A stretch of 64,000 nucleotides of DNA from Gammaproteobacteria bacterium. Its GTDB lineage: Bacteria; Pseudomonadota; Gammaproteobacteria; JABCZS01. The stretch is taken from positions 2,092 to 66,091 of the forward strand of contig JAJFKJ010000013.1 in assembly GCA_021773275.1 (NCBI GenBank), in the 5' to 3' direction. The notes below the pieces were generated by a model. The model worked only from the letters and a program-made list of their open reading frames with translations, searched no databases and was not told where the DNA came from. How positions within the stretch are numbered: position 1 is the first letter of the stretch; every line of letters begins with the position of its first letter. A program made the translations under genes and the position numbers. Of the stretch, positions 511 through 61,128 are shown piece by piece.

Positions 511-609
511 GTGTAGGGGTCGCACCCAGTGCGACCCGAAAAATCCCCCGCCCGCCGGTGGCGGCCTGCCCCCTTTAAAAAGGGGGCGAATATAGAGTGC
601 CGCCCCTAC
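511..609. repeat. Composite REP element: GTAG-headed REP hairpin (513-537), a family-2 structured repeat (543-589) and a terminal ...gccgcccctac
   Basis: gtaggggtcgcacccagtgcgaccc, then atcccccg-[gccgccggtggcggc]-ctgccccctttaaaaagggggcga, then tgccgcccctac. Homologous copies are listed elsewhere in the window. Confidence 0.7.
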
Positions 610-2870
610 TAGAAAAAGAAGTTCTGATGGCTGTGAACTTCGGTCGCGGTTTTATCTGCAATGGACGGTTCGACGACAGGCGCTGGCAATCTTCCTATAA
701 AGCCTGCACCCGCAAGCACGGGGCTAGATGTTGCTGATGATGCTACAGATGCGGGTGCAGAAGCTGGCTCTGGCTCCGCCTCTGGCGCTGGCGAATTTTT
801 ATTGTCAGCGTCCAGCTTTAATGATTTATTAATTTCATTACTAAGAGCATATTTTTGCTCTGTGAACTCACTACGAGAATAACAAGCAATGCCGAACAAC
901 GCTAGCAAAGTGATAATACCGCCAATAAACATAACAACACCTAGCGAGCCGCCTTGGCTAAAGCCAAATATTGCGTCATCCACAAAGGGATTTAAAACAA
1001 AACCGATGCTAGCTAGGGTAATGCTTGTCATGGCTGCAGCTGTGTACCCATTAACACTGCATGTAAGCAAGGCCTTGTTATTATCCCCAAGCTGCTCCCG
1101 CAGGCCTTCTAATTTTTTTCGTGCGTCTTCCAAGCTAATCCGATCTTTAGGTTTCTGCTGCAACAAATCCACAACCACAGCACGCATTTGTGATTCTACT
1201 TCAAGCTCCCAAAGCCAGGGGCGCTTTATATAGGCTGTAACATGGCCTGGCAGATTAAACTGGTCTTTATCAATCCAAACCCTATTGCTAAAAATAGTAG
1301 CAAGCACAATACCCAGACTGTACCTGTCTGCCGCCTGTGTTGCTTTGTTAAGCTCCGGCGCACGGTAGCAAGCTGGAAGTGCTATTATCAAATCGGCTTC
1401 AATTTTTTCTTTTGCTTGCTCGGCTTGTTTAAAAACATCGGTAACAGCCCTTTTCAATGCATTTTTGTCACCCTCAATTAACGCTTCCTTTCTTGTTAAT
1501 TTGTTTTTTAATGCAGCATGCTCAAGATCTTCAGAAATTTCACTTAAAACCTTGCTTAATAACTCATGATTGGCATCAGTAAATGCTAAATTTATTCTGT
1601 GTACAAGATTAGTCTTTAAATACCCCAGATGATTATCCAACACCTTGCCAAAAAATTTTATTGTGTGCCGGTTAGACTTAGGATGGCCCTCTTTAAGTGC
1701 TTTGAGCAAGCTAAATATACCTTCAAAATTCCTGCCTTTTTCCAACGGTATACCAACAGCCTTGGCCAACGCTTCTAATCTAAGTAAGGCTTGAGCCTGT
1801 GGCAAATCCAACATTTTCACTAGGCTTGTTTTTTTATTATTTTCATTTAAGAACAGCAAAGGAGTAGCTTCATCATGCATTGATGCGTAATCAATGATGG
1901 TAACTTTTTCGCCTGTTGGTTTTTCATTGTTTACAATGAAATTGTTTGGCCCCAGATCACCATGTACATAATGCTTGTCATGCTTAGGTGCATGCAATTT
2001 CTCTAGCGCAGCAACATACTCCAACGCCAAATCAATTTTTTCAATGACTGTTTGTTTCTTGTGGGTTCTCTTGCCTGCTTGAGGGCTATAGGGGTGGAGT
2101 AAACCCTGTAAATTTGTGCCGGCCACCCAAGACATAATTAGATAAGTTTTTGAGGCATCTGTTTTTACCTTTTCCTGCTGGCCATAGTATTCTTGAGGGG
2201 TTTGAAGGCCGTCGTTTCTATTATAAGCTTTATAGTGCTCATCATTGCTTTTACTGGTTTTCCAGAAAAGTGCAAACGGATCTGCTATTTTTTCATCTCT
2301 GCGATGCACTGTGCCAATCTTTTCTTCACCCTCTACCACTTTGATGTTTTGTATTTCTATGTCATGGCTAGCATCGATTACTGAATCATAAAACACTTTA
2401 ACGGCAACAAATTCTTTTGTATTTAAATTTTGGCCCAGCTTTACCCGCCCAAAAGACCCCCTGCCTAGTTCAACATCGGTGATGGCAATACACTCACCTT
2501 TTGTTGTGGAAAGTAATGAATAAGGGAGTGCACGCGCATCGATATTATCTGCATCGAGCCCGAATATTAATTCATCAATATTATCTAGGCTGCGCTGGCT
2601 TTTATCTTCAAACTTTCTTGTCGTACGCTCAAGCTTGCTGTTTTTATTTTTGTCAGCCCAGGCTAAAGCCTGTGTTCGTGCGTCTTTCGGTAATAGATAG
2701 CCTTCTGAAAGCCGGTTTATCTTTTCTCCACCCGAACGATTGAACGTATAGCGGATATAGGAATGCTCCCCATGAAAACGAGGGGCATCCAAGCTGTATT
2801 CACGCTGCATCACCAGCTGCGGTGGCACCTGTTGACTATTTGCCTTGTTGTTGTCTTTATCGCCACCCAT
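609..2870 (-). CDS. Eukaryotic-like Ser/Thr protein kinase with C-terminal double transmembrane anchor and Pro/Ala/Ser-rich tail (effector-like)
   Basis: Gly-rich loop GRGSFGRV, beta3 lysine VAVKVF, catalytic loop HGDLGPNNFIV, an IIDYASM (DFG-position) motif, a coiled-coil region, then two hydrophobic helices near the C-terminus. The stop codon TAG lies inside a REP ctactag. Confidence 0.75.
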   Translation of the reverse strand: MGGDKDNNKANSQQVPPQLVMQREYSLDAPRFHGEHSYIRYTFNRSGGEKINRLSEGYLLPKDARTQALAWADKNKNSKLERTTRKFEDKSQRSLDNIDELIFGLDADNIDARALPYSLLSTTKGECIAITDVELGRGSFGRVKLGQNLNTKEFVAVKVFYDSVIDASHDIEIQNIKVVEGEEKIGTVHRRDEKIADPFALFWKTSKSNDEHYKAYNRNDGLQTPQEYYGQQEKVKTDASKTYLIMSWVAGTNLQGLLHPYSPQAGKRTHKKQTVIEKIDLALEYVAALEKLHAPKHDKHYVHGDLGPNNFIVNNEKPTGEKVTIIDYASMHDEATPLLFLNENNKKTSLVKMLDLPQAQALLRLEALAKAVGIPLEKGRNFEGIFSLLKALKEGHPKSNRHTIKFFGKVLDNHLGYLKTNLVHRINLAFTDANHELLSKVLSEISEDLEHAALKNKLTRKEALIEGDKNALKRAVTDVFKQAEQAKEKIEADLIIALPACYRAPELNKATQAADRYSLGIVLATIFSNRVWIDKDQFNLPGHVTAYIKRPWLWELEVESQMRAVVVDLLQQKPKDRISLEDARKKLEGLREQLGDNNKALLTCSVNGYTAAAMTSITLASIGFVLNPFVDDAIFGFSQGGSLGVVMFIGGIITLLALFGIACYSRSEFTEQKYALSNEINKSLKLDADNKNSPAPEAEPEPASAPASVASSATSSPVLAGAGFIGRLPAPVVEPSIADKTATEVHSHQNFFF

Positions 2871-3144
2871 GCATGACCTTTAATATAATATGTGCGAGTT
2901 ACCAAGCTCATTCTACCTAAGACTCACTTAAAATACAATGCTTGCTAAGCGTAAGTATATGATTTTCAATAAAATAAGGCATGAATTAAGTGTCTGATTT
3001 TGTAACAAAATGTAAAGCTTGTGAACTTTGATAAATATCCATATAGATCAATGGCTTATCTATTTACCCCTGCGTGCTTTTGGTATCGCGCAATGGTATA
3101 CTTACTTTATAGTATGTTGTTTAACTACTTTTGAGTAGAGAAGT

Positions 3145-60742: not shown

Positions 60743-60991
60743 TCAACACACCTTTAGTGCCTTCAAAATAACCACCTTGCTGTGCAAACTCAGCAACTTT
60801 TTCAAAGCCGGCTTTTGCGTAAACATGAATGGCGCATCGCCTTTTAAACCTAACCAATAGGTGTTCGACCCACCGAAATATTCAGAGCATGTTTTCCTGC
60901 CATGCATGAAATTCACAATATCATCGCGATGGCCTTGGCTGTTGTCCCAAAACTCTTGCGTATGCGGCTCGTCCAGCCATGAATAGATCAT
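60743..60991 (-). pseudogene. GNAT-family N-acetyltransferase gene fragment (AAC(6')-like N-terminus), truncated
   Basis: MIYSWLDEPHTQEFWDNSQ...NTYWLGLKGDAPFMFTQ resembles the AAC(6')-Ib N-terminus (MLYEWLNRSHIVEWWGGEE...TPYIAMLNGEPIGYAQS). The ORF reaches only ~83 aa before running into the converging ankyrin gene end. The upstream extension in the ORF track translates a REP element. Confidence 0.45.
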
Positions 60992-61053
60992 GTCTTTGTC
61001 GGCGAACGCTGTTTTTTGAATGTGAACATTTGCCAATATTAGCACATACCTTG

Positions 61054-61128
61054 TACAGGGGCGGCATTGCATGCCGCTTGCACGGAGGTAAACCCGTGGC
61101 AATCGCATCGCTACGCAATGTCGGGTCA
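61054..61128. repeat. Degenerate REP/REPIN remnant abutting the recN-3' duplicate
   Basis: gtacaggggcggcattgcatgccgc (REP with a 2-bp insertion), then ...ctacgcaatgtcgggtcacc (compare R2 ctgcgcaatgtcgggtcgcac), truncated exactly where the recN-homologous segment begins. Confidence 0.5.

Follow-up and report, generated by a model that had tools for sequence, protein, structure and literature searches.

A 64-kb window (64,000 nucleotides (nt), positions 2,092 to 66,091 of contig JAJFKJ010000013.1, assembly GCA_021773275.1, from an uncultured gammaproteobacterium) was examined for repetitive extragenic palindromic (REP) elements headed by GTAG and for the enzyme that might act on them. It contains ten REP units, seven intact and three decayed or truncated, at six intergenic loci. 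It also contains a Y1 transposase gene of the histidine-hydrophobe-histidine (HUH) type, which is bracketed by inverted copies of a different 26-nt repeat, here termed family B (Table 1). The preliminary description of this DNA had proposed a GTAG-headed family of REPs and REP doublets forming hairpins (REPINs), served by a REP-associated tyrosine transposase (RAYT) encoded at 30726–31298. The family proved to be real, as seen from its enrichment, a conserved hairpin, compensatory changes in the arms and inverted doublets, while the assignment of the enzyme failed the tests of flanking repeats, motifs and profiles given below. The GTAGGGG elements are probably a canonical GTAG-tagged REP family whose own enzyme is encoded outside the window, with the Y1 gene belonging to class 3 of the TnpAY1 transposases and having family B as its likely substrate.

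Nine copies of the heptamer GTAGGGG are present in the window, compared to 2.28 ± 1.52 expected, and none of 100 shuffled sequences reached nine. The full hairpin pattern GGGKSRCA-N5-TGYSMCCC was found six times against 0.00 expected over 100 shuffles, an over-representation within the window that bears out the preliminary description. In an independent search, GT[AG]G heading a perfect stem of 7 bp or more was matched nine times against 1.2 expected, and seven of these matches belonged to the GTAGGGG family. A perfect hairpin is present on seven of the nine bare GTAGGGG matches; the match at 54156–54162 lies inside a NAD-kinase gene, has no hairpin and was ruled out as a chance match. A covariance model built from the seven intact copies and run over the window recovered all seven at 42–47 bits together with the decayed copy at 61051–61082, and gave no match beyond these eight. 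The decayed unit at 557–609 was missed by the model. The coordinates reported previously hold, with refinement of three to 23075–23099, 48878–48902 and 61051–61082 (decayed).

Read from the GTAG end, the unit consists of GTAG, GGG-NN-GCA-Y, NNN and R-TGC-NN-CCC, giving 25 nt with a 9-bp stem, a 3-nt loop and an unpaired GTAG, within the 20–40 bp expected of REP palindromes. The three lowest stem pairs are G-C, and all seven intact copies have GTAG at the start with the stem immediately after. The loop had been given as 5 nt, which is incorrect: its outer bases always pair (C-G or T-A), so that the loop is 3 nt and the stem 9 bp. All 63 pair cells of the seven intact copies are Watson-Crick (100%), and changes on both sides were found at three of the nine stem pairs (U-A/C-G, C-G/G-C and C-G/U-A), confirming the earlier observation that the arms vary while pairing is kept. 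When the partner was slid by 1–3 columns as a control the pairing collapsed. Folding of the individual copies, suggested as a check in the preliminary description, gave z values of −4.4 to −7.3 at the REP loci.

The REPs are partly organised as REPIN-like heterodimers. Head-out inverted heterodimers, joining a TCGCA-arm unit to a CGGCA- or TGGCA-arm unit, occur at three loci (513–609, 4585–4676 and 21534–21583) with spacers of 19, 42 and 0 nt, and a decayed dimer is present at 61051–61128. Around the abutting doublet (21532–21585) a flanking TTGTAG/CTACAA pair closes both hairpins into one structure. At 4583–4678 the centroid structure contains the two units paired as one long hairpin and the minimum-energy fold contains four separate hairpins. 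One base after the main hairpin, five units carry a second one (7-bp stem, 3-nt loop); it is homologous in four of them (CATYGC-GYA-GCRATG, again with a compensatory change) and unrelated in one. The second hairpin at 4634–4650 contains a G-T pair on the plus strand that is an A-C mismatch on the other strand. This is the sole pair seen to differ between the strands, and it hints weakly at a role for one particular strand or transcript. The arms of the decayed REP at 557–609 are about 30 nt apart and hold a CCCCTTTAAAAAGGGG hairpin (570–594). This hairpin is one copy of a third small repeat, CCCCTTYAMAAAGGGGGCGA, which is also found at 27913–27937 and 38963–38987, all three copies being intergenic.

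Table 1. Position, strand and description of the GTAG REPs, the Y1 gene and the family-B units, with the genes adjoining each REP locus.
Feature	Position	Strand	Description	Score or basis
REP	513–537	+	Intact, TCGCA-type arm, GTAG GGGTCGCAC CCA GTGCGACCC; left unit of head-out dimer	44.6 bits
REP	557–609	-	Decayed, CGGCA-type, head GTAGGGGCGGCA at 598–609, arms ~557–566 and ~595–605	by eye
REP	4585–4627	+	Intact, TCGCA-type (4585–4609), one G, second hairpin 4611–4627 GTCGAGC TTA GCTCGAC	46.9 bits
REP	4634–4676	-	Intact, CGGCA-type (4652–4676) with second hairpin 4634–4650; right unit of head-out heterodimer	42.6 bits
REP	21534–21558	+	Intact, TCGCA-type; head TAG (21535–21537) is stop of open reading frame (ORF) 20914–21537	covariance model
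REP	21559–21583	-	Intact, TGGCA-type; abuts 21534–21558 unit without spacer, head-out heterodimer	covariance model
REP	23057–23099	-	Single, intact, TCGCA-type (23075–23099) with second hairpin 23057–23073 ACATTGC TGC GCAATGT	covariance model
REP	48860–48902	-	Single, intact, TCGCA-type (48878–48902) with second hairpin 48860–48876; dnaK-dnaJ spacer, sense to operon	covariance model
REP	61051–61082	+	Decayed, CGGCA-type, GTACAGGGGCGGCATTGCATGCCGC	18.8 bits, E 0.016
REP	61105–61128	-	Truncated; second hairpin and first six bases (GGGTCA) of main hairpin	read at locus
REP locus	513–609		Kinase-like gene, then tRNA-Met	
REP locus	4585–4676		Hypothetical gene and PIN gene, convergent	
REP locus	21534–21583		Hypothetical gene, then tRNA-Leu	
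REP locus	23057–23099		Hypothetical ORF 21963–23033 and secG, convergent	
REP locus	48860–48902		dnaK, then dnaJ	
REP locus	61051–61128		Ankyrin-repeat gene, then rimK	
Family-B unit	30535–30560	-	Partial, CTGCTCGTTCGCTGGCGC...	
Family-B unit	30606–30631	+	CTGATCGCGCACTAGCGTTTGCGCTC; inverted doublet with 30661–30686, spacer about 29–30 nt	
Family-B unit	30661–30686	-	CTGCTCGTTCGCTGGCGCTCACGCTC; just 5′ of Y1 gene	
HUH-Y1 gene	30747–31298	+	183 aa; longest ORF from 30726, database product from 30747	motifs of TnpAY1 class 3
Family-B unit	31295–31320	+	CTGATCGTTCGCTAGCGCTCACGCTC; TGA of CTGA foot is the Y1 stop codon	

That the copies are chance palindromes, or the products of one duplicated locus, is extremely improbable, and for the family as a whole this reading is refuted. 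No shuffle contained a single full match, and the REP core is also found at hundreds of loci in other genomes. A single duplicated locus had been named in the preliminary description as the finding that would overturn it; the flanks are unrelated at most loci, and the pair at 21559–21689 and 23075–23174, which has about 75 nt of extra flank in common at 79% identity, is the one case that points the other way. This REP-plus-flank segment occurs twice in direct orientation (57 nt at 79%), around tRNA-Leu(GAG) at 21770–21852 and a 356-aa orphan ORF, with secG just past it, and the REP core differs between the two copies in its loop and through compensatory changes in the arms. A tRNA or other known RNA in the 75 nt that follow these REPs (at 21583 and 23099) was rejected with ARAGORN and Rfam, which found only tRNA-Met (381–457) and tRNA-Leu (21770–21852). 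A motif beside three of the REPs, ATTGCGAGAT, was likewise rejected as a further repeat or target site, giving 14 matches compared to 12.8 expected; its two exact copies are part of a local duplication.

Every REP copy is intergenic, between well-supported genes that are convergent or co-directional, and lies 3′ of one or both of them. The preliminary description stated that the GTAG head supplies the TAG stop of the adjoining gene, which is correct for the ORF ending at 21537, while at 609–611 the stop of the kinase-like gene (609–2870) has only a one-base overlap with the REP head, TAG-TAG in frame. A reading of the hairpins as intrinsic terminators was rejected, there being no T tract after any of them.

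The dnaK-dnaJ spacer of the window is 103 nt long and contains a two-hairpin unit of 43–44 nt. On a contig of the closest relative (L125, DnaJ 82% identical) the spacer is 59 nt (9573–9631) and has no REP, and the difference of 44 nt between the two spacers matches the two-hairpin unit. The spacer of a second, more distantly related genome, represented by contigs L126 and L127, holds three tandem GTAG/GTAT-GGCGCAA units (L126 9819–9945, with a 50-nt period; L127 from 4375), and the unit GTAG-GGGCGCAA-TATT-TTGCGCCC is present at two more loci of that genome (three loci in 21 kb). Another of the more distant relatives (L128, 9657–9698) has a GTAG-headed hairpin with a 14-bp stem. The stems of these GTAG hairpins are unrelated in sequence to the window REP. 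The hairpins lie at offsets of 37, 21 and 7 nt from the dnaK stop, and these differing offsets argue for repeated acquisition or replacement and not for the inheritance of one hairpin.

The same observations bear on an unlikely alternative in which the hairpins are host regulatory structures (3′ mRNA stabilisers, attenuators or sites for DNA-structuring proteins) that are selected and have become immobile after loss of the transposase. Each copy sits just 3′ of a gene and has its head toward that gene, a GTAG hairpin of differing sequence is found in the dnaK-dnaJ spacer of three of the four related genomes, and the one G-T pair suits an RNA stem on one strand only. Decayed and truncated copies are present, and loss of the REPtron, a RAYT gene flanked by its GTAG REPs, is documented in strains of E. 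coli. This reading leaves unexplained the near-identical 25-nt sequences at unrelated loci and the invariant unpaired GTAG, no copy is an intrinsic terminator, and a regulatory role is in any case compatible with a mobile origin and not opposed to it.

GTDB genomes of other phyla contain a degenerate form of the REP core in at least 117 stretches, the listed matches including Chloroflexota, Nitrospirota, Thermoleophilia, Clostridia, Omnitrophota, Verrucomicrobiota and others, and at least 120 metagenome contigs contain the exact TCGCA core. Among the metagenome matches listed, an inverted partner was located within 80 nt at 36 of 129 cores, TCGCA+CGGCA pairing included. A perfect hairpin 0–3 nt after the CCC was found at 40 of these 129 cores compared to 1 at control positions; in roughly half of the 40 cases the hairpin is the abutting partner REP. 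The architecture of partner and second hairpin is therefore not peculiar to this genome; the lineage-specific composite pattern of REP and second hairpin gave no match in the JGI metagenomes. It is conceivable, and decidedly unlikely, that the element is bipartite, with a constant GTAG hairpin that is the same across phyla and a second hairpin of fixed position and shape and free sequence. Were this true, the presence of the constant half in Gammaproteobacteria, Bacillota, Chloroflexota, Nitrospirota and others would indicate a horizontally spreading REP-RAYT system, the enzyme of which would read the first hairpin only, leaving the second to mark the insertion target or to be of use to the host, for instance as the 3′ end of an RNA. 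More boldly, where class 3 is the only Y1 gene of a genome, its enzyme might service both repeat families.

The protein encoded by the Y1 gene matched Pfam PF01797 (Y1_Tnp) at 32 bits. It gave 23.7 bits against the NCBIfam RAYT model NF047646 (REP_Tyr_transpos), for which the cut-off is 80, and was also under the cut-off of the NCBIfam IS200 transposase model. Homologues numbered 339, at approximately 45–58% identity, in Legionella, gammaproteobacterial metagenome-assembled genomes and Acidobacteria. In 22 of these homologues NHVH (H93-V-H95), W132-T, RHGSTRY and Y153....Q158-G159 are invariant and the N-terminal segment YFITFTCYG.RLHG is conserved. The window protein itself contains SNHVH, KWT, YVLQRQ and KWTKHGSTRY, the family consensus at the tyrosine being YVxxEQG. 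It contains neither the class-2 motif Y---NP nor WQ...(E/D)H..R, the residues of which contact GTAG in E. coli TnpAREP (PMC6006769). For TnpAY1 class 3 the motifs are given as NHVH, W[TA] and YV[VI][AENY]EQ, with a length of 178 aa and extended N-terminal conservation (Table 1 of Quentin et al., PMC6006769), and by motifs, length and taxa the predicted product of 30747–31298 is a match to this class. The published survey of class 3 contained 14–24 members, and none of its enzymes has been biochemically tested (PMC6006769).

Sequence searches of the PDB with the Y1 protein and with its family profile gave only a weak match to a Sulfolobus IS200 transposase (E 0.025 for the profile). The AlphaFold model of the protein had a pLDDT (predicted local distance difference test) of 83, and in a fold search its matches to ISDra2 TnpA, IS608 TnpA and the E. 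coli RAYT 4ER8 were of similar strength (E 7e-5 to 3e-4), in keeping with the published placing of class 3 between classes 1 and 2. The family profile matched the 19 published sequences of RAYTs and of terminal inverted repeat-associated tyrosine transposases (TIRYTs) weakly, at most at 15 bits.

The Y1 gene is bracketed by four family-B units in all, with a CTGA or CTGC foot (CTGA in two). These units have no GTAG and fold weakly (z 0.7 and −0.1). Class 3 genes are associated with structures having a CnGA foot and not a GT[AG]G foot (PMC6006769), and the CTGA foot of family B fits this. Homologues of the Y1 gene on two metagenome contigs (L122, which holds the closest homologue, and L123) and in Legionella waltersii are each flanked by inverted doublets of their own. 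The repeats of L122 have a CTGA foot and a doublet spacer of about 30 nt as in the window, and the L. waltersii unit has a CCGA foot and 13 copies in 20 kb. In the closest relative, L125, a family-B doublet (the same 23-mer, with a 30-nt spacer) lies 3′ of dnaJ on an 11-kb contig that contains no Y1 gene; the lineage thus has in family B a second repeat family that is REPIN-like. Each tnpAREP is flanked by its own REP family (PMC6006769), and by this criterion of the field the Y1 gene is cognate to family B. To judge from these sequences, family B, and not the GTAG REPs, is likely to be the substrate or partner of the class 3 gene.

Two further observations concern the repeats beside class 3 genes. 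The CTGA foot gives the TGA stop of the Y1 gene both in the window (31295–31298) and in L122 (10525–10528), in parallel with the GTAG heads that give TAG. In L. waltersii (contig L120, 8675–9547) the repeat associated with class 3 is arrayed in tandem 5′ of the Y1 gene, recurring about every 283 nt, and has been annotated as small ORFs of 77 aa.

The remaining candidate for the REP enzyme within the window is the Y1 gene itself, acting as a RAYT that reads the GTAG head and mobilises the REPs, as the preliminary description had it. This is very unlikely. The gene is the only HUH-Y1 gene in the 64 kb, its catalytic HUH and tyrosine residues are conserved, its homologues carry the JGI label "REP element-mobilizing transposase RayT", and its fold matches that of 4ER8. 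Set against this, the gene and its homologues are flanked by different repeats and not by GTAG REPs, the nearest of which are 7.6 kb and 17.6 kb away. The motifs are those of class 3, without Y---NP and the GTAG-contacting residues, the score is below the cut-off of the RAYT model, and published class 3 genes go with CnGA-footed structures. Only two weak matches to the REP model were obtained in 56 kb around three class 3 homologues.

A cognate RAYT was sought using tblastn, phmmer, hmmsearch and motif regular expressions. The queries were the window Y1 protein, its family profile, an approximate E. coli RAYT sequence and 16 RAYT/TIRYT sequences from PMC3733652 (file S5), and these were run against every ORF of the listed 117 genome loci and 120 metagenome loci and of the loci of the relatives. 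The results include several points that weigh against a GTAG-tagged REP family with its enzyme elsewhere. No RAYT flanked by GTAG REPs was found in the 64-kb window, and no significant RAYT or Y1 gene was found in approximately 1.5 Mb of REP-adjacent DNA of other organisms, so that the enzyme class for the GTAGGGG core is taken from the literature only. REPtrons can be absent, having been lost in E. coli strains (PMC3733652). The class 3 enzyme may also act on GTAG hairpins such as GTAGGGGTCGCA or GTAGGGGTCGCACCCTGTGCGACCC. Mobility of the REPs is suggested only by presence and absence between diverged genomes whose spacers align poorly. The pair at 21559–21689 and 23075–23174 may be a local segmental duplication, and the complete pairing of the intact copies is somewhat circular because the copies were partly chosen by pairing.

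If the GTAGGGG elements are indeed canonical GTAG-tagged REPs, they would, from their family, be non-autonomous, and the single-stranded DNA hairpin with its GTAG would be read, cut and rejoined by a class-2 HUH-tyrosine enzyme (RAYT/TnpAREP). This enzyme would be encoded outside the window, and the Y1 gene would sit in its own REPtron-like unit with CTGA-footed repeats. The REPs would settle just 3′ of genes, be transcribed and could then act as 3′ mRNA hairpins. Variants of the arms that preserve the hairpin would be retained, since the stem is required by the enzyme and by the RNA or DNA structure alike.

Several other features of the window adjoin the REPs. Approximately 165 nt of the recN 3′ end is duplicated at 94% identity (55996–56156 and 61129–61289), and the two copies flank a segment of about 5 kb that contains a 1521-aa ankyrin-repeat gene (56174–60739). 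The right junction lies inside a REP, truncating it at 61128, where the duplicated recN end begins. In L125 recN is followed directly by fur, without the 5-kb segment. The segment has the appearance of having inserted into the 3′ end of recN and brought a replacement end with it. L125 also has a perfect palindrome with arms of 16–22 bp directly 3′ of recN (3319–3366), of which the window keeps a left-arm remnant at 56180–56195, and a repeat of about 70 nt holding the hairpin ACCGTGTGAATACACACGGT (10768–10840 and 11025–11095). Two Logan contigs from run SRR15505519, of the same organism, break off in repeats: L124 ends (position 4757, window 48877) at the 3′ edge of a REP core, and L001 starts at window 30631, inside the family-B cluster. 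These ends may be repeat-induced assembly breaks or the result of low coverage, and are suggestive only. The window encodes eukaryote-like proteins, namely a protein-kinase-domain protein (609–2870) and the ankyrin-repeat protein (56174–60739), which has an internal 66-nt tandem repeat at 59474–59605, and the nearest named relatives of its DnaJ are 65–68% identical. Together these suggest that the host is an uncultured, probably host-associated gammaproteobacterium.

What is new here is the occurrence of a GTAG REP family and a separate, probable class 3 Y1 "REPtron" in an uncultured deep-branching gammaproteobacterium. It would illustrate cleanly how two independent Y1-type repeat systems can lie next to each other, and the class 3 family is much enlarged. 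A Y1 or "RayT" gene near REPs should not be taken as their transposase; the deciding features for such a gene are its flanking repeats and its Y-motif (Y---NP versus Y----Q). Class 3 had previously been described from about two dozen sequences, and the 339 homologues together with the CTGA-foot doublets provide concrete substrates for an in vitro test. The sequence-divergent GTAG hairpins that recur in the dnaK-dnaJ spacer offer a natural test of REP recruitment for operon-internal regulation.

REPs have been sorted into GTAG- and CGTC-tagged super-families (Di Nocera, De Gregorio and Rocco 2013, PMC3733652). The GTAG-tagged REPs have stems of 6–13 bp, loops of about 2–4 nt and sub-families with complementary stem changes. 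They form HH (head-to-head) dimers with GTAG outside, often heterodimers, with spacers of 0–100 bp that may hold small stem-loops, and they prefer convergent or co-directional intergenic regions, where their GTAG ends give a TAG stop to flanking ORFs (PMC3733652). The window REPs share the unpaired GTAG foot, the stem and loop sizes, the covarying sub-families, the HH heterodimers, the location and the TAG stop. The traits stressed by the preliminary description (variable arms, kept pairing, the GTAG head and the supply of TAG) are thus already published properties of GTAG REPs, and its view of GTAG as a hallmark of REPs agrees with both published accounts (PMC3733652 and PMC6006769). The window REPs differ in that the stem GGGTCGCAY has no match to a named family when compared by text descriptions, in the lack of a REPtron in the window, and in that about half of the units have a regular second hairpin at a distance of one base from the main one. 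The host differs also, being an uncultured deep-branching gammaproteobacterium with eukaryote-like effector genes. In the classification of Quentin et al. canonical REPs with a GT[AG]G foot, some having three G-C bottom pairs, flank tnpAREP subclasses 2.2, 2.4, 2.5, 2.7 and 2.8 (PMC6006769), and the window REPs correspond to the "canonical long REP" with three foot G-C pairs (Quentin et al. 2018, PMC6006769; TnpAY1 2.4, 2.7 and 2.8).

The doublets resemble the REPINs of Pseudomonas fluorescens (Bertels and Rainey 2011, PMC3116915) and the bacterial interspersed mosaic elements (BIMEs) of E. coli in consisting of two inverted REPs that may fold as one hairpin, here 0–42 nt apart, and their partners are of two sequence types like the Y/Z REP pairs of E. 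coli. In contrast to those systems the arms are non-identical, the long hairpin having one mismatch and one G-T pair, no RAYT is adjacent and there are only three or four doublets. The window Y1 gene resembles TnpAY1 class 3 in NHVH, W[TA], YV..EQ, length, N-terminal conservation and occurrence in Acidobacteria and Proteobacteria, and also in being flanked by several weakly structured, possibly multicopy repeats with a CnGA foot. It differs in that the foot of the downstream repeat gives the TGA stop of the gene, in the window and in L122, and the published set is extended here from 14–24 members to the 339 homologues, Legionella included. TIRYTs and their TIRtrons (PMC3733652) are alike in having a Y1 gene within inverted repeats unrelated to GTAG REPs, in a genome where GTAG REPs occur as well. 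They differ in that the family profile of the window Y1 protein scored at most 15 bits against the listed TIRYTs, most of which are of subclass 2.1 with Y---NP and a C-terminal helix-turn-helix, whereas the window protein has neither.

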